Below, piece by piece: positions 8,401 to 49,010 of a stretch of 64,000 nucleotides of DNA. The DNA comes from Octopus sinensis. Taxonomy: Eukaryota. Numbering within the stretch: position 1 is the stretch's first letter; the number at the start of each line of letters is the position of its first letter. The stretch is taken from positions 1,674,001 to 1,738,000 of the forward strand of contig NC_042997.1 of the NCBI RefSeq assembly GCF_006345805.1. The letters are read 5' to 3'. The position numbers and the translations under genes are program-made. Below the pieces are notes generated by a model. It was not told where the DNA came from. It saw only the letters and a list, made by a program, of their open reading frames with translations, and searched no databases.

Positions 8401-8799
8401 AAACGGAAATAGCATCCTTTTTTCTTTTTCCTTTCTCCTTTTACATTTTCCTTGTGATTTCCGGTGTTTTCAACATTTCACCTTTTCAATCAGTCTTCTT
8501 AACTTTTCTTGTATTTTCCTTTATTCTAACATCCGGCTTTAGCATGTAAATACATGTGAGCATAACCTGAATATTCCAATAAGGCACCAAATGACTGAAT
8601 TCGATCTGCATCTGTCATGCATTTCTTTCCCGTTGGGAAGAGATAATCACAGTCATTTAATCATTTTGCTTGCTACCGTAAACTCTGTGACTACAAAAAA
8701 TTTACTTCGTGGGCAGTGCAGGCTGAATTCGTTGAAAACTATAACACAAATAATTTTCTTCTTTATGAGTTATCCTCATTCTGTTTTCATGCCCAATTT

Positions 8800-9598
8800 A
8801 CTGGCAATGGGTATTTTCATAACAAGTTCAAGTTTAACACAATAAATATGCCATCCGAACGTTGTATAGAAGAAAAGTGAAAACTATCTTGTGCAGTATA
8901 GTGGAGCAAGTTATGGCTCGGTGGAGCTCTATGTGTTCGAATAACCGTGTTTGTGTCGCTATAATTACTCAAATGCGAGCGAGGTGCATTACTTGTTAAT
9001 TGAATGTTCATTACTTGTTAAGGAGGACGAATGCCACATATTTGGAGATGGCCAATGTGTGGTTCCTCGCAATTCGGGCATTTAATGTAGTAGATCAAAT
9101 TTCTGCATTTGTAGTTCATATCATCATTTGCGAAAATCTGTCCATTTTTGTTCTAATGGATCTCTTAGTATGCATGTATTAATACATTTCACATCTGTTA
9201 GCATTACACTTGAGTACTGTGAGTGACCTATGCTGTTTGTTTATGTAGCATTTTGCCTTTGTTAATAGTTTCTTTAGGTTACGTGATTGCCTTTTGCTAA
9301 AAATGAGTGTTTGATTAGTTATTATGCTTTTTAAATTTTCACTTTGTTTCATGATTGGCAAATTTTTTTTGATGATGTTAAAAATGTTTGTCGTGGTGTG
9401 CATTGTGTGTCAATAGGAATGGTAATGTCTCCAGTTCAGGGTTTCTTCTTTCTTGTGTTGCCCTAAATAGTTCTATAGGTATCTTTTTTTTGCTCGTTGT
9501 ATGCTATTTTCTATCAGTAGGAATAGATAATTTTGCCTCAGCGGAAATCCTTTGAGTTCTATAAGTTGTGTGATCCTGGTATTTGGATCATCTACTAT
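8800..9598 (-). mobile_element. Penelope-like element remnant: linker plus GIY-YIG endonuclease
   Basis: Minus strand: SKRQSRNLKKLL...KCNANRC (PLE Cys linker), then MNYKCRNLIYYIKCPNCEEPHIG (GIY-YIG motif) at ~9050-9120. Confidence 0.8.
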
Positions 9599-9599
9599 G

Positions 9600-11165
9600 A
9601 GAAAGAAAACGGCCAAGAAGAAACAGGTGTGAAACATCTTATAGGATAGACCCTAAAATTATTAACCTGTCAAAAAGAAATATGGACAGTGACGAAATTT
9701 AATTATTGATGAAAGTACTACAGTTCACACCTACACCTACAGTCAACCATCAGGAATTGGCGGAAGGTACTCAACATGTTTTTGTCGGAAGCAGTGGCCT
9801 GTGGAGTTTTTTACTGGAAAAATTATGAGAAGATGTCTACTTGACGAAAAATAAATTGCAAATTAACCCTCTAGAAGGACGAAATACACATCTACGTGAG
9901 TTCATTGATATCCTCTCCAGATTTCCACTGAGGTATACCATCAACCTCAGACCATATATTTCAAAATTAGAAGCGCCTGCCCTTATTCGTCTTAAAGATG
10001 ACAACACAATTGTCATCATACAAGCGGATAAAGTGGGTGCCATTGTTATTATGGATGTGAAATATTACCGTGATCTAGTTGAATATGATTTGAAGGATAC
10101 AACGTTCTACCATGAAATACCCTCGAATATTGACCACCGCATGATGAAGAGACTCAATTATTTAGTCTCAAAACATTATAACTTCCCCACTTCTAATGAA
10201 AGGAGATATATTACCAATTTTGGGTCTAAACCCAGCAACTACTATGGCTTACCTAAAATACATGTCTAAAGGAATATAAAACGCAATAAAAGAACAAGGC
10301 TGTGAATACATAAAACTGCCACAACAAAAGACCTTAAGCTAAGACCCGTTATAGCTGGTTCAGCTTGTCCTATACTTCGTCTGAGCAACCTTGTTGACAT
10401 TATCCTAAAGCTCTTTTGTAGTCACATACCCGGTTTCATTCGGGACGACATCGGTTTCCTGTCACGTCTGCTCAAAACAACTTTTAGTTTTGATGTACCA
10501 ATTTTATATACGAATATTGTACATGATTTGGGAATTACTTCTATAAAATATTGCGTCCCGAAACATAGAGTAGCGATCCCCAGTAGATTTACAGAAACCT
10601 TCATACTAGACACTATATGTGTCACCCTCGAAAATAATACATTCCTTTTCAACTGTTAAAACCACCACCATATTTCGAGGCACAAATATGAGGATGCAAT
10701 TTGCTCCAGTATTCACGAATTCAGTATTGGGATTCTTGGAACATAACCTATATAAAAAAATTGAAGAGAACTATGGCATGACCTTTAGAAGACATATAGA
10801 AGATATAGAAAAAATACTTCGACGATTGTTTCCTAATTTGGACCAAATCCCTAGAAAATCTGGAAGAATACAGAAACCTCCTCAGCAATCTACTCCCTAG
10901 TCTCAAATTCCCCAGAAAAATGAGCAATACACAATTAACATATCTTGACATAATGGTACTTAAAAACAACACCACAATCTCAACTGATATTTATTACAAA
11001 AGCACAGATAAACACCAGTACCTACATTTCAAATCTTGCCACCCAGCACATACAAGGCGCAATATCCCGTACTGTCTAGCGAGGAAAATTTGTAAAATAG
11101 CAGATGATCCAAATACCAAGAGCATACGACTTATAGATCTCAAAGTAGTTCTGCCCAAGCAAATC
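9600..11165 (+). mobile_element. Penelope-like element remnant: reverse transcriptase
   Basis: ORFs 9841-10269 (IIQADKVGAIVIMD, YYGLPKIH), 10619-10900 (GTNMRMQFAPVFTN) and 10920-11255 (YLDI, IYYKSTDKHQYLHFKSCHP) are typical PLE RT motifs; frameshifted. Confidence 0.9.
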
Positions 11166-11811
11166 GGTTTATTAAAATTGTCAAACCTGTTCGTACAGAA
11201 AGAACAAAAATGGTATAACAACCAGTTAATAATGTGGATTAAAAAATATATTTAACATATGTAGTTAAAAAACTACAGAAGAGTCCAACCAATTAAAATA
11301 AAAATGATCGAAACCAACTAAGTTTGCTCACTCATAAAACCATTACATTTAAACTGCAAGCTAACTGGTTAAATTAAAAGCGGGATATATGCCATTAATA
11401 TTGGTACGCCAGCAAACTGTTGCGTTGAGGTGCATGCGGATTGACGAAAACCGTATTTCAAAAATTAAACTTGGATCCTTCTAAGCGGAACAAAACTGAA
11501 TCAGTGAGTCAATTTTCTACAGTTGTTAAGAACGCAAATGTCAGTTAAATACATTTTGAAATCTGATGATTACTACTAACGTATGAACGTGGCAATTGGA
11601 GTTTATGAACATTACAAAATATTGTTTTAATGTTTTACTTCAACATTGTAAAAAACAATTATATATATTTTTTAAATAACAAAAGGAAAAAACTGTAAAA
11701 CATTATCTTTCTTCAACTGATTCCTTATTCTAATTATATGCCCATTTACACAAATTCGTTTCTCTCTCTCGCTCTTGCTCTCTCTCTCGCTCTTGCTCTC
11801 TCTCCCTCTCT

Positions 11812-18243: not shown

Positions 18244-18352
<109 letters not shown>

Positions 18353-18396
18353 TATATATATAAATGAAAGAATGGAGTTGAACAACGAATTAACTA

Positions 18397-18504
18397 AATT
18401 CCTTTATTTTATTTTCGACATATGTTTCGAAGGCTGCATATTCCTAATTTCGAAGGAATAAGGGGTGCATTATGCCGCCTTCTCATCAGGAAAAGTAAGG
18501 AACT
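18397..18504 (-). ncRNA. Type I hammerhead ribozyme (mirror copy in the left arm); predicted cleavage after C at 18417 on the minus strand
   Basis: Exact reverse complement of the plus-strand ribozyme across all core and stem positions. Confidence 0.88.
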
Positions 18505-18620
18505 TATGTCAGCATCAAGGTGCACAAAAACGTTTAGATGACTGCCCGCACGGAGCCCATATCTATGGGCTCCGTGCGGGCAGTCATCTAAAAGTTTTTG
18601 TGCACCTTGATGCTGACATA

Positions 18621-18728
18621 AGTTCCTTACTTTTCCTGATGAGAAGGCGGCATAATGCACCCCTTATTCCTTCGAAATTAGGAATATGCAGCCTTCGAAA
18701 CATATGTCGAAAATAAAATAAAGGAATT
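18621..18728 (+). ncRNA. Type I hammerhead ribozyme, complete core; predicted cleavage after GUC at 18708
   Basis: Stem I TTTTC (18631-35)/GAAAA (18709-13), extended by TTCCTT/AAGGAA beyond an internal loop; CTGATGA 18636-42; stem II GAAGGC (18643-48)/GCCTTC (18691-96) extended by GCATA/TATGC; GAAA 18697-700; palindromic stem III ACATATGT; GTC 18706-08. Confidence 0.88.
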
Positions 18729-18926
18729 TTGTTAATTCGTCGTTCAACTCCATTCTTTCATTTATTTGTATTTAAAAAAAACACACAAATTTCCACACGA
18801 TAGCACGTGATCTCTGCCCTAGGCATGTAGCTTCAACCGTGTTTTTCTGACATGAATTTGCTACCCAGGTATCGGTTAACCGAATTATCCATAATAAGAT
18901 AATTCATTCAACTACTCAATTATATA

Positions 18927-29789: not shown

Positions 29790-29951
29790 TATTACATTAT
29801 TTATATTTGACTGACATTTGTCCTCATATTGTTTGTTGTTAACACCACGTTTCGACTGGTATAAACACCAGCATTAATCATGTGTCTTGGGGAAATTTCG
29901 AACACGAATTCTCACTTCTAAGGTATTTTTCAATGATAATGATGATAGAAC

Positions 29952-29995
<44 letters not shown>

Positions 29996-30072
29996 TCACT
30001 GCCTGGAATCAAACTCGGAATCTTGGGGTTAGTAGCCCGCGCAGTTAACCACTACGCCATATACCCGTGGGC
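29790..30072 (-). mobile_element. tRNA-like head + (AAT)n + decayed hammerhead module
   Basis: Minus strand: TGGCGTAGTGG (A box), GGGCTACTAACCC (anticodon-arm-like), GAGTTTGATTCC (B box), (AAT)n, then GACACATGATTAATGCTGG..CCAGTCGAAACGTGGTGTT, homologous to the intact core at 38165-38210. Confidence 0.8.
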
Positions 30073-30094: not shown

Positions 30095-30600
30095 CTTATA
30101 AATCTTATATTTTCTTATCTTTAATACCGGTTCCTGTATGCTATTCATATCTGCACTTGGTCGGCTTAGGAGGTTGTTGTGTCCTAGCATATGTGCTGTT
30201 TCTTTTAGTTTTCGTATTTTCCAGAGATGTATTCTGTCTATTGTTTATCTTCATCCCACGGAGAGAGGTGGTATCCATGTCTGTTGTATCTTTTCGGAGA
30301 GGCTTTTCAGATAGAGTAGACAGGCTGTGGACAGCTTATTGGTTTCATCCTCTCTTTTCTTCATAATTGGAGTGTATAGTATGTGTTTGGGGTAGTTGTT
30401 GCTTAATAGATTGTTACTGAGCTTAATCATTTCTTCTTGGTGGGTATCACAATCGCTACTTATATTCTTTGTAAGAAATTTTGGGCACTGAGCAATTCCT
30501 CTCTTTACACTCTATGGATGATGGGAATTGAAGTTGAGGTATCGTCCAGTGGAGGTCGGCATGCGGTATACGACAAACAGTTGTGGGTTTTACTTTGACT
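30095..30600 (-). mobile_element. Internally deleted PLE ORF end (RT thumb joined to endonuclease C-terminus)
   Basis: Minus strand: TSTGRYLNFNSHHP*SVKRGIAQC, LLSNNYPKHIL, LLYLKSLSEKIQ, then WKIRKLKETAHMLGHNNLLSRP; these are PLE motifs. Confidence 0.82.
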
Positions 30601-37352: not shown

Positions 37353-38064
37353 CTATCAGAAATGTATGCCTATTTATGCCTATCATAAATAAGTCGACTG
37401 GTAGCGCAAATCGACGGCTCACTCTAATTAAATTACCGGGTGAGAGCGCTAAGCAGTGATAATTAAAATGCAATGTTATTACAAATTCGAATATGTTAGA
37501 AGCACACAGTAATTAAATAATAACATATAGCAAAATGTCTTTAAACTTTTAGCTCTTTCTAATATTGTATATTTCTTAAGCCTGGGAGCACTCTCCTGTT
37601 ATATTACGTTTCATCAGACGTATTGACTAGTTAAGACTAGACCCAAATTTGATTCAAGGAGAGATGTGGTATATATTACACATAGTTAATTTCCCTCTAT
37701 AGTTTTGAATATGTAGCTGATTGCTAATTAAATGTACCTCCATAAACTTTTATTTAGTGAGTGGCTAAATTCTGAGAGATTTTCTGGGAAACAGAAAAAA
37801 AATTGACATAAGCATGCATACAATTTTGTTGTGGTTGAACATTCGGGAATTGCGCACCAAAGAAAAGAAGACAATGTTAATGATATAACTAGCATGGAAA
37901 TTCAATATAAGAAGTGAAGAAAGAGCAATGTAATATATTATTTCTAAATTTCGAAAAAAACGTTTTAGATGCAGGCCTTTATAAGAAATGAAATTACTGA
38001 AAAACTTCGGTTTTCAAAACTGTCACACTTAGAAACAAAAACAAGGTTTGAATTGTAGGGAGAA

Positions 38065-38257
38065 TTAAAAATACTACAGTTCTATATTTAAGAGATGAGG
38101 AATTATGTACATTATTTATCTTACTTACAACTGACAGATATTTGTCCTCGTCTTTTTTGTTGTTAACACAACGTTTCGGCTGATATGCCCTCCAGCCTTC
38201 ATCAGGTGTCTTGGAGAAATTTTGAACCTGGGTTCTCATTCCTAATGTACTTTTCGA

Positions 38258-38297
<40 letters not shown>

Positions 38298-38352
38298 GGT
38301 TAAAAATGCGGGCCACTAACCCCAAGATTCCGAGTTCGATTCCTGGCAGTGA

Positions 38353-38424
<72 letters not shown>

Positions 38425-38554
38425 AAACAATGATAATAACAACAACAATAACAGAAACAACAACAAAAATAGCAACAACAACAACAAAAACAACAACAAC
38501 AACGACAACGACAACAACGACAACAACAACAACAACAACAATAATAATAATAAC

Positions 38555-38595
<41 letters not shown>

Positions 38596-38748
38596 TAATA
38601 ATGATAACATCGAAAAATACCTTAGGAATGATAAATTTCCCTAAGACAGCTGATGAAGGCTGGAGGGTGTATCAAGCGAAAGGTTGTGTTAACAATAAAC
38701 TAGATGAGGGCAGATATCCGTCAATTGTAAATAATGTAAATAATGCAT
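38065..38748. mobile_element. Head-to-head pair of tRNA/(AAT)n/hammerhead modules
   Basis: Minus copy 38065-38295 ((AAT)n, HHR, tail) abuts plus copy 38296-38748 (5'-clipped tRNA-like head with GAGTTCGATTCC, (AAT/AAC)n, HHR-like CTGATGA...GAAA at 38650-38681). Confidence 0.85.
38165..38210 (-). ncRNA. Minimal type I hammerhead ribozyme, core boxes intact
   Basis: Minus strand GACAC-CTGATGA-A-GGCTG-gagggcatat-CAGCC-GAAAC-GTT-GTGTT: stem I GACAC/GUGUU, stem II GGCUG/CAGCC, loopless palindromic stem III (AACGUU) as in PLE-associated minimal HHRs; triplet GUU. Confidence 0.8.
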
Positions 38749-39247
38749 TAAAAAGACTGTTTTAAACACTTTGAGCAGTAAATATCAGTGATCTTGAGTT
38801 TTCCAATAGTAACGAAGCAATGACAATACAAATCACACGAATCAGTTCTGAAGACACGAGACAGAACTTGAAAAGATATAATGGAAGTATCGAAACCCTC
38901 ATAAGCACAAAAGGTTTTTGAGATGACAATCGTTTTGTTATATATTGTTGTGTGTTTGTCCATTTATTTATTCAAAAATATATATTTCGTGTTTATCATC
39001 GGTATAAATCTACCAAAATACGATTAGCTTTTAAATATATCGTGCATATATACACACACATACTCACACATAAATATACACCCACGTAAATATATCCTGC
39101 ATATATCCAAGCACACATACACGCGCATAGACGCCATTTTTCTTACAATCAAACACACACACACACACACGCTCACACACACACACACGCTCACACACAC
39201 CACACACGCTCACACACACACACACACACGCTCACACACACACACAG

Positions 39248-39600: not shown

Positions 39601-40005
39601 CTCTTACACTTTTAACTGATTCAGTCATTTGGATGTGGCCATGCTGGAGCACCGCCTATAGTCGAGCAAATCGACCTCAGGACTTATTCTTTGTAGGCCT
39701 AGTACTAATTCTATCGATCCCTTTTTCGAAACTGCTAAGTTACGGGGACGTAAAAGCACCAGCATCGGTTGTCAAGCGATGTTGGAGGGGACAAGCACAG
39801 AAACACAAACACACACACACACACACATATACACATATATATGGCGGGCTTCTTTCAGTTTCCGTCTACCAAATCCACTCACAAGACTTTGGTCGGCCCA
39901 AGTCTATATTAGAAGTGACTTGCCCAAGGTGCCACGCATTGGGACTGAACCCGGAACTATGCGGTTCGTTAACAAGCTACTTACCACACAGCCACTCCTA
40001 TGCCT
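39601..40005 (-). mobile_element. Family A SINE, full length
   Basis: Reverse complement of 41376-41775. Confidence 0.9.
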
Positions 40006-40393
40006 GTATATATGTATGTATGTATAGATATATATATGTATGTATGGATGAATATATGTATATAGTGCTATTAATCTACGTGGTCAAACAGGCCTATAAT
40101 ATGGCTTAGGTTTCCAAGCAGTCTCTCAGACTTTGACGGTTTGGTTTGTTCTATTTGAAAGTCAAAACGTGTTCAAATAGAACAAGCAATGTGCTTAGAA
40201 CCTGCTTTTGTTTGGATACACAGGAAACGTTTTTAAGTCTACCTAATCTCATGTTTTAATAGTATGCATCTGTTAGCAGTGTACGTTAGTTGATATTTAT
40301 CTTTTTCTGGATGGAATAAATTCTTGTTGATCTTACCTTAACGGAATATTAAAATATATAAGTATATATTCGTTTGTATGTACATGTATATAT

Positions 40394-40468
<75 letters not shown>

Positions 40469-40630
40469 TATTATATATATATATGTTTGTGTGTGCATAT
40501 TCATGTGTGTGTGTGTAAGTATATGTTCATGTATATATATATTATATATATATATATTATACACGTATGAATGTATCTATGTATCTATCTATATATATAT
40601 CTAGCTATCTATCTATCTAGCTATATATAT

Positions 40631-40717
<87 letters not shown>

Positions 40718-41375
40718 GTGTGTGTGTGTGCTCCTGTCCGTATGTGCATATGTGTGCATTTCTGTTTGTGCGGGGAGAAAAGCGGTAAATTCGAATGAAA
40801 ATGATACTTCTACTGTGTCCGGTAGAATTATCACCAATTATTAATCTCACGGCTACTTCCCATTGCTATCTTACAGGATGCCTGTAATAAGCAGTAAAGT
40901 ATTTGTTTCCGTATACATATCTATAATGTTTGAAAGTTGAACCCAGATGATATTTCATAAATGAAACCAGAAAATTGTAAGCAGTGACTAGGTATTACAG
41001 AGCAAGAAAGTGAGTAAATGTTACAATTTAAAATATTTTAAGCAGATGAAATATACTAGAAATGCAGTTCTACTATATTCCATTTAATTGTTTGGTGGTG
41101 TTGCCTTCGAAGGTAAACCTTTGGATATGAAGACAATAGTATTAATTACGCTTTCTTGGATACAGAAGATACGTCAAAAACAGATCTCTGAGAAAGGATA
41201 ATGACCTATCAGCAGCAGTCAGAGGTAACTCTGCGTGATATTTGAATCATTAGATGTCAGATATATTGATTTCCAAAATTTCTAACTCTCTACTAATCTC
41301 AAGCAGTCTCTCAGCGTGAAACAATATGGGAATATCCAATAATTCATGAAGGCTGACTATTAGGATATACATATA

Positions 41376-41546
41376 GGCGCAGGAGTGGCTGTGTAGTAAG
41401 TAGCTTGTTTACCAAGCACATGGTTCCGGGTTCAGTCCTACTGCGTGGCACCTTCGGCAAGTGTCTTCTACTATAGCCTCGGGCCGACCAAAGCCTTGTG
41501 AGTGGATTTGGTAGACGGAAACTGAAAGGAGCCCGTCGTATATATG

Positions 41547-41577
<31 letters not shown>

Positions 41578-41775
41578 TTGTGTGTCTGTGTTTGTCCCCC
41601 TAGCATTGCTTGACAACCGATGCTGGTGTGTTTATGTCCCCGTTAATTAGCGGTTCGGCAAAAGAGACCGATAGAATAAGTACTGGACTTACAAAAGAAT
41701 AAGTCTCGGGGTCGAGTTGCTCGATTAAAGGCGGTGCTCCAGCATGGCCGCAGTCAAATGACTGAAACAAGTAAA
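41376..41775 (+). mobile_element. Family A SINE, full length (tRNA-like head, CORE-like ACCTT(G/C)GGCAAGT, internal TA/TG microsatellite)
   Basis: GGCGCAGGAGTGGCTGTGTAGTAAG A-box region, GGTTCAGTCC B-box-like; many copies in the window. Confidence 0.9.
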
Positions 41776-42062
41776 AAAATATATATATATATATACAAGA
41801 AGTGTGATATACAAACGAAAGCCTTAAACAATTTTGGATCACATGTTTTGCGGTTAGCACTTCAGATGGTTATTCACGGCGTGATATATACATATACAAA
41901 GGGATTATATATATATATACATACGTACGTACATACATACATACATACATACATACATACATACATACAGACAGACATATATATATATTATATATAATAT
42001 ATATATATATATTATAATATATATATATATTATATATATATATATATAATATATATATATAC

Positions 42063-45701: not shown

Positions 45702-47926
<2,225 letters not shown>

Positions 47927-48834
47927 ATGCACATCCATACATACAAACACTGGCACAAAGTCAGAATGCACACACAATGAGACAGGTACACACACGCACA
48001 CACACACACACACAAAAAACACACTCACACAGACACTCACACAAAAACACTCACACGCAAACACATGAAAATGCAGAATACAAATGTACAAATATACATA
48101 TATACATACGCACACATACTAATACGTACATGCCAACACACACTTACATGCATATATAATACATACTTGTGTATGCGCACACACACTGACCTACACACAG
48201 GCGCACAAACGAACGAAAAGAACGCCTCTTGAATAACGGGCAGAGTCAAAAGCTATTGAAAAGGTTAACGAAACGAAAATTTTAGAAATATAAATAGGTA
48301 AATGTGTTGAAATTTTACCGGTGGGTGTGTTAACTTACGAGGCCCTAAAGGGAACAACTCGCCTTAGACACAACAGAGTACATATCTAGATATTATAATA
48401 ATCAAAAGGAAAATGCACATGTTTACATAGTTTCACTATGTTTTATATGGTAGTGTATTGTGATAGTCGACCAGTTTCGCAGTTTGCTAATTATGACGTT
48501 GAATTTTTTTTTGTAATTTCGTATATTCTCAAGAAGATTTTAGTCAATGTTCTTTTTAATTCGTGATCGCATACCAATTAGTGTACGTATTTTATCATAG
48601 TACTTTAACATAGGTGTTTATAGAGATTTATTCAACCCCAAATATGCAATTGTCTTCTCTGTCTCCAACAATAACAATAACCAATTACCTCACCTTAGAT
48701 ATTATTTTATTCATGCTGATTTAATTACAAATTTCCAAAGGAAAACATGGACACAAACTGTCATAAGAAAATTTGAAATTGAAATAATTTCAATAACATG
48801 ATTAGCGAAAGGCGAAGCCTGTCCACTATCACAA

Positions 48835-49010
48835 TACTCTACCATATAAATTATATTAAATTATATTTATACTCTACCATATAAAATATATTAAATTATA
48901 TATATATATACTCTACCATATAAAATATATTAAATTATATATATATACTACCATATAAAATATATTAAATTATATATATACTCTACCATATAAAATATAT
49001 TAAATTAAAT
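48835..49010 (+). repeat. AT-rich minisatellite, about 5 units of ~35-39 bp (TACTCTACCATATAAAATATATTAAATTA(TA)n)
   Basis: Directly visible; unit length varies with the (TA)n tail. Confidence 0.92.

Follow-up and report, generated by a model that had tools for sequence, protein, structure and literature searches.

The window, a 64,000-nucleotide (64-kb) stretch of Octopus sinensis DNA, is AT-rich and dense in microsatellites, and at positions 38064–38758 it holds two hammerhead-bearing arms that lie head to head between the copies of a target-site duplication (TSD). The left TSD copy occupies 38064–38075 (plus strand), and its last 1–5 bases possibly overlap the end of the element. The left arm is inverted (minus strand) and consists of a 35-nt 3′ extension (38075–38109), whose last codons resemble the start of a Penelope-like element (PLE) ORF; a pseudo-LTR-derived body without a head, delimited by alignment (38110–38257); and (AAT)13, found by microsatellite scan and read as (TAT)13 on the plus strand (38258–38297). 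The inversion junction falls at 38297/38298, with a microhomology of 1 nt (3 of the last 4) to the end of the A box. Beyond it, the plus-strand right arm begins with a tRNA-like head that is cut in its A box and retains a B box at 38334–38343 (38298–38356), continues through an expanded (AAT/AAC)n tract of 251 nt (38357–38607) and ends with an aligned body that carries a 12-nt deletion (38610–38745), followed by the right TSD copy (38747–38758, plus strand). This body stops at column 148 of the 183 alignment columns, position 38745, so that the 35-nt extension is found in the left arm only and the head in the right arm only. Complementarity between the arms is 83% over 113 nt, or 77% over 148 with a gap.

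Every element listed in an earlier sequence-only reading of this DNA is present, namely two arms with hammerheads, an (ATT)n joint, a clipped tRNA-like head and an expanded (AAT/AAC)n. The pair had been placed at 38065–38748; the pair itself stands, and its extent becomes 38064–38758 with the TSD included. There is no RT plus GIY-YIG ORF within 38064–38758, and the unit is thus not an autonomous PLE. A tandem retrozyme interpretation was rejected because the 64-kb window contains no tandem array of this family.

Hammerhead motifs of the two arms

A relaxed scan, in which an extra base and a long stem II were allowed, returned one complete hammerhead at the locus, located in the left arm (38210–38165, minus strand). 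This intact minimal type I motif has a 5-bp stem I, a CUGAUGA core, one unpaired A after A9, a 6-bp stem II (one G-U pair) capped by a GAAA loop, a loopless 2-bp stem III (ACGU) and a GUU site triplet, with cleavage predicted after 38170. Among the rows listed, its core is identical to that of the read majority. The intact core and GUU site described from the letters alone were thereby recovered, as was the absence of a loop in stem III; the helix itself is ACGU, since the AACGUU originally given for it includes A14 and U17. The plus-strand motif of the right arm (38645–38690) is damaged, as had been reported, by four changes: a G-G at the base of stem I, two substitutions in stem II and C15.2 to G. 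At the gathering threshold, no Rfam family was detected in the 64-kb window, and in two regions searched at E values up to 10 no match to a hammerhead or tRNA model was obtained, the hits being chance ones.

The left-arm motif shares its type I topology, short helix I, core, extra base 9/10.1, G10.1-C11.1 pair, palindromic 15.2-16.2 and lack of a loop 3 with the minimal metazoan PLE hammerheads described in the available part of Cervera and De la Pena 2014 (PMC4209133). In contrast to those, helix II is 5–6 bp here rather than 7–8 bp, and the two motifs lie on opposite strands rather than in tandem, which leaves no dimer in cis. A palindromic stem III had been linked to cleavage as a dimer, and this idea gains nothing from the geometry of the pair. 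Opposite-strand ribozymes cannot dimerise in cis, and in folding models of a read-through RNA of either strand, 41–42 of the 46 ribozyme bases would be buried in a hairpin with the other arm. By folding alone, a double hammerhead is modelled at −20.7 kcal/mol, and the lowest-energy dimer at −32.1 kcal/mol. Based on the strand arrangement and the predicted pairing with the other arm, the pair is not a cis-dimer device, a candidate that was rejected, and is probably inert. The locus as a whole is probably dead, as the intact ribozyme lacks a promoter of matching orientation, while in the head-bearing arm the A box is missing and the ribozyme is broken. The hammerhead travels with the pseudo-LTR as a passenger.

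A repeat family with a tRNA-like head and a PLE-related end

A third, non-inverted copy is located on the minus strand at 29792–30067 and has a whole tRNA-like head, (AAT)13 and a decayed hammerhead tail without the 35-nt extension. Its B box and its A box (30059–30049) were called by box-pattern matching; the combined A+B pattern is unique in the window, with 0.005 expected from 200 shuffles. In this head, 5 of the 7 acceptor-stem positions are paired, and no internal T4 run occurs in the copy. ARAGORN made 0 tRNA calls in the window, and Rfam likewise reported no tRNA. Hammerhead tails begin at the same place after (AAT)n in all three copies, and both heads lead through it into such a tail, indicating that the microsatellite is internal to the repeat.

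This head/(AAT)n/hammerhead repeat is very abundant. Summed over the contigs of four runs, depth on the tail is ~1.1–4.8 million compared with 6–61 on the covered flank, values that are not a copy number and that refer to 37400–38257. Pattern scans of metagenome, viral and prokaryote collections yielded 0 further copies. Short and long forms of the tail are also seen, which differ by a small tandem duplication at 38118–38131 (a depth drop with loose ends at 38118) and could serve as a subfamily marker. A literature search returned nothing on such a family or on a PLE-mobilised tRNA SINE; Repbase and Dfam were outside this search, and the family may be catalogued there. According to the accessible text of a recent octopus annotation, SINEs and PLEs are abundant and many SINE families are unclassified (PMC13282606).

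Directly upstream of the third copy, a Penelope/Poseidon-type ORF in the same orientation is represented by its decayed 3′ end (30119–30571, minus strand), which has an internal deletion of ~90 codons and ends ~40–50 nt before the head. RT plus PF26215 hits for this ORF numbered 5 among 315 candidates (best E 2.6e-37). No Pfam domains were found in the decayed PLE frames, no Atlas hit was obtained for the 30.3-kb piece, and no related PLE locus was found in viral contigs.

The end of the unit was also compared with the predicted proteins P0019, a relative of this ORF, and P0012, both of which we take to be PLE proteins from RVT_1 and PF26215 together with known motifs. Residues 1–33 of P0019 match an antisense reading of the tail (score 58, E 2e-5), a score reached by 0 of 5000 shuffles and 0 of 5000 window pieces. 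Read antisense, the start of this predicted protein corresponds to a pseudo-LTR piece that bears the hammerhead, is inverted and continues in frame into the PLE ORF of an autonomous-type element, and such an inverted-tail start was seen in P0019 alone, 1 of the 33 proteins tested. Since part of the match is the hammerhead, which is common to PLE families, it is evidence of kinship and not of the exact partner. The start of the near-full-length P0012 weakly matches the last codons of the tail (score 30; 15 of 5000 shuffles, last 60 nt), with a weak match to the whole tail (171 of 5000 shuffles). A match at this end is expected from Adineta, in which the pLTR plus tail spans the first 22 ORF codons (Arkhipova et al. 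2013, PMC3846280, available part). As judged from these sequence comparisons, the tail and the pseudo-LTR end of a Penelope/Poseidon-type element are homologous, and the source of the unit's terminus is the pseudo-LTR, with the ORF start, of an RT/GIY-YIG element.

Two interpretations of the whole unit can be weighed. SINEs are normally partnered with LINEs. The head with A and B boxes expected of a tRNA-derived SINE is present in the third copy and has lost its A box in the right arm; a LINE-partner 3′ end, equally expected, is not what the P0019 and P0012 comparison reveals, as the 3′ end is PLE-related. In the first interpretation, which we regard as less likely than not, the family would be a true Pol III SINE with a tRNA-like head, and a Penelope/Poseidon enzyme would move it rather than a LINE. 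A tRNA and (AAT)n would have been fused to a PLE hammerhead end and highly amplified, with asymmetric head-to-head insertions that record double priming from two start sites, possibly by a pair of RNAs joined at their palindromic stem III. A fossil of this fusion may be preserved at the 29.9-kb locus, and Sm-alpha of Schistosoma provides a precedent for a Pol III promoter combined with a hammerhead (PMC6765202, accessible portion). If true, an abundant tRNA-headed family with PLE integration marks would add a class of SINE partner and alter repeat annotation in this genome.

In the second interpretation, to which we give slightly less than an even chance, an autonomous PLE has head, (AAT)n and tail as its 3′ untranslated end (pseudo-LTR), the copies are short 5′-truncated ends, and the head does not work as a SINE promoter. 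The only whole head in the window does sit ~40–50 nt past a same-strand PLE ORF remnant, whose 3 stops in 160 codons compare with 2.5 expected at 13.6% decay; a TSD and a start at the tRNA 5′ end are combined in none of the three window copies, and no significant TSD surrounds the third copy (a nearby 14/17 match, from ~20,000 position pairs, is at chance level). However, this arrangement is known from one locus only, and because PLE enzymes cut at ORF-pLTR junctions (PMC11167929), a SINE could have landed there. The A and B boxes of the third copy are moreover intact and the copy contains no T4 run, and in P0019 no head is seen where the inverted piece meets the ORF.

A shared target-site duplication

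The TSD matches at 11 of 12 bp between 38064–38075 and 38747–38758 and flanks the whole compound. Its boundaries were fixed independently, by read ends on the left and by alignment on the right. An equal score was obtained at random positions in 5, 1 and 6 of 3000 trials, and at AT-matched sites in 6 and 1 of 2500 trials. Loose read ends with unlike AT-rich flanks place the 3′ end of the element at 38071–38078 (mode 38075) in all four runs; reads also often end at 38071, which could reduce the TSD to 8 bp (score 8, ~1% by chance). No separate TSD was found for the right arm (best 5/7). An empty-site allele was not seen among contigs that reach 24–25 letters into the element end (X4 and X6), below the 31-letter bar for bridging.

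Divergence from the read majority, which was compiled on the left arm with all table rows but 12 visible, is 8.8% for both the left arm (13/148) and the right arm (12/136). The corresponding value for the third copy, 13.6% (19/140), is not separable from that of the arms (Fisher p 0.25–0.26). Only one of the differences is common to both arms, and 20–37% of depth carries this variant too. Based on the shared TSD, the equal divergence of the arms and the one-sided 35-nt tail, the pair is most likely one inverted insertion and not two, a conclusion held with considerable confidence and to which the equal divergence lends weak support. The single inverted duplication put forward in the sequence-only reading is in this respect borne out: rather than two subfamilies of different age with separate TSDs, the arms have a common TSD and the same divergence.

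A competing TSD for the left arm is offered by the head itself, where 38300–38307 is identical to the left flank at 38065–38072 (8/8; null 31/2500) and where the matching letters include four consecutive differences from the head of the third copy. With this match, and 7/8 to 38748–38755, three 8-bp target copies could be drawn, as though a 5′-truncated plus-strand copy had inserted first and a minus-strand copy had then entered its left target. The very high copy number of the family and the tendency of PLEs to insert into or beside earlier copies (PMC6765202, accessible portion) are in keeping with two independent insertions. We nevertheless regard this as improbable. A second, oppositely directed hit would have to strike these very 8 bp, and the 12-bp outer match would require three extra chance matches; on the outer side of the left arm no 5′ part of a head is present, 5 nt being the best match there. 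Furthermore, the middle target copy lies in exact head register, its own TTAA and the TGG before it being those of the intact head, and this register speaks for chance, or for a junction that was patched, as its origin. Insertion of the left arm inside the head was rejected.

Origin of the inversion

Head-to-head geometry has been described for PLEs. In the available part of PMC8557442 (2021, Fig. 2), PLE insertions often have an inverted, 5′-truncated copy at their 5′ end and a tail of 30–40 bp, often at one end only; the same inverted insertions are formed by Naiads, which are without hammerheads, and how PLEs build inverted units is described as still open. The accessible text of the Adineta study reports inverted pLTRs with 8–10 bp TSDs, gives head-to-head as the commonest PLE arrangement and proposes self-priming (PMC3846280). 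All three features, an inverted 5′-truncated head-to-head copy, a one-sided tail of 30–40 bp and a TSD around the whole unit, are present at 38064–38758, and the tail likewise covers the first ORF codons. Because head-to-head arms, one-sided tail and TSD together make up this published signature, the geometry is one already known for PLE insertions. In contrast to the units in the available parts of those papers, the unit here contains no ORF, has a tRNA-like head and (AAT)n before the pseudo-LTR part, and has an asymmetric centre instead of a palindrome. The pair is for the most part a known, ordinary PLE product, of a variant family.

Related non-coding repeats are Sm-alpha and Sj-alpha of Schistosoma, which as far as the accessible text extends are also abundant and carry a type I hammerhead after a Pol III-type promoter (PMC6765202, PMC2770079), and the animal non-LTR retrozymes, which are argued in the available part of a preprint to be non-autonomous PLE derivatives (bioRxiv 10.64898/2026.07.22.740005). 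Those repeats, as described there, are tandem, whereas the copies here are dispersed or inverted and combine a minimal hammerhead with an internal microsatellite and a PLE tail.

The compound at 38064–38758, with a decay of ~9%, is probably a single insertion for which a Penelope/Poseidon-type RT/GIY-YIG protein used an RNA composed of tRNA-like head, (AAT)n and pseudo-LTR with hammerhead. To produce this structure, the enzyme would nick both strands of an AT-rich site 8–12 bp apart and prime cDNA from both nicks. The left arm, with its tail, would be primed from a distal start site, and the right arm, without one, from an internal start site 35 nt in. Both cDNAs would then stop early and be joined head to head by minimal microhomology, after which repair would create the TSD. 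L1 twin priming similarly places two primed cDNAs from a staggered cut, with a microhomology joint, inside one TSD; in L1, however, the two pieces represent different parts of the RNA, whereas here both arms represent the same 3′ part. The parts needed are known from the protein of the anole Poseidon element PAc: in vitro, both strands are cut and extended by it, with a preference for ATT, and synthesis begins at two sites that delimit the tail (Frangieh et al. 2024, PMC11167929). The TSD here starts with ATT, in line with this preference. In contrast, neither an inverted insertion nor a tRNA-headed template was reconstituted in that system, and ribozyme cleavage was dispensable.

Neither arm is a simple copy of the other, barring a later central deletion, because each holds sequence that the other lacks (the tail on the left, the head on the right). 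Such a deletion is invoked in a fold-back variant, in which one cDNA hairpins and copies itself to a perfect palindrome, and a later central deletion removes the left head and the right A box. Self-priming has been proposed for PLE palindromic junctions (PMC3846280, available part), the palindrome at 18.4 kb in the window has such a centre, and the junction microhomology of 1–3 nt and the variant common to both arms fit as well. However, fold-back requires a second event, leaves no relic of the left head to point to, and alone does not account for a tail on one arm only. It is considered unlikely and is a variant that falls only partly within the one-event probability assigned to the preferred explanation. 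Two-ended priming and fold-back predict different products, and a short, abundant family with subfamily variants offers many natural ones; the PLE inversion question is therefore testable from an assembly. If two-ended priming is true, asymmetric head-to-head insertions would make the unexplained inversion step of PLEs readable from genomes.

The sequence-only reading had assigned the inversion to the microsatellite, as the point at which the template is switched. It is true that the 5′ edge of (AAT)13, a tract of the same length as in the third copy, is where the left arm ends. The right arm, by contrast, breaks in the A box of the head, and the junctions at 18.56 kb, at 9598/9599 and in P0019 have no microsatellite; in other copies, a strand change inside the tail was found at 3 of the 15 joints listed, out of 58. 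With (AAT)n internal to all three copies and the left arm alone breaking in it, an obligatory switch within (AAT)n/(ATT)n is very doubtful.

Inverted duplication as such does recur in this route, as had been supposed: it is a published hallmark of PLEs, and three of the four PLE-type loci found in the window are head-to-head (the 38-kb pair and the loci at 18.4 kb and 8.6–11.2 kb). The second of these is a young palindrome (18351–18774) whose arms are alike at 202 of 208 positions (97%) and abut round a 2-nt spacer. Its intact, outward-facing hammerheads (18494–18412, minus strand; 18631–18713, plus strand) have a long stem II and a ACAUAUGU stem III; its left end merges into (AT)n, and no TSD was found for it. 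The palindrome shares only short words with the 38-kb tail (best E 0.21), and the assignment of the two loci to different families, unrelated beyond core words, is upheld. Their likeness in geometry holds for the two outward-facing hammerheads and not for the symmetry of the arms, which are old and asymmetric at 38 kb. The third locus is a decayed PLE (8600–11215) with a head-to-head junction at 9598/9599. Its plus arm is RT (matches to P0012 and P0029; Atlas PF26215), and its minus arm overlaps 11097–11215 (82% over 67 nt) and continues, by eye, into a CxxC linker and a GIY-YIG part absent from the plus arm. No TSD was found for this element.

Elsewhere in the window, a 5′-truncated non-LTR RT ORF (45702–47756; RVT_1 E 1.7e-20, weak zf-RVT) directly follows (AAT)63. 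This ORF is presumably R4/Dong-like, from a clade whose target is this microsatellite. Two further inverted pairs, at 39610–41776 (84% over 411 nt) and 48427–48864 (73% over 125 nt), are probably chance pairs of abundant repeats.
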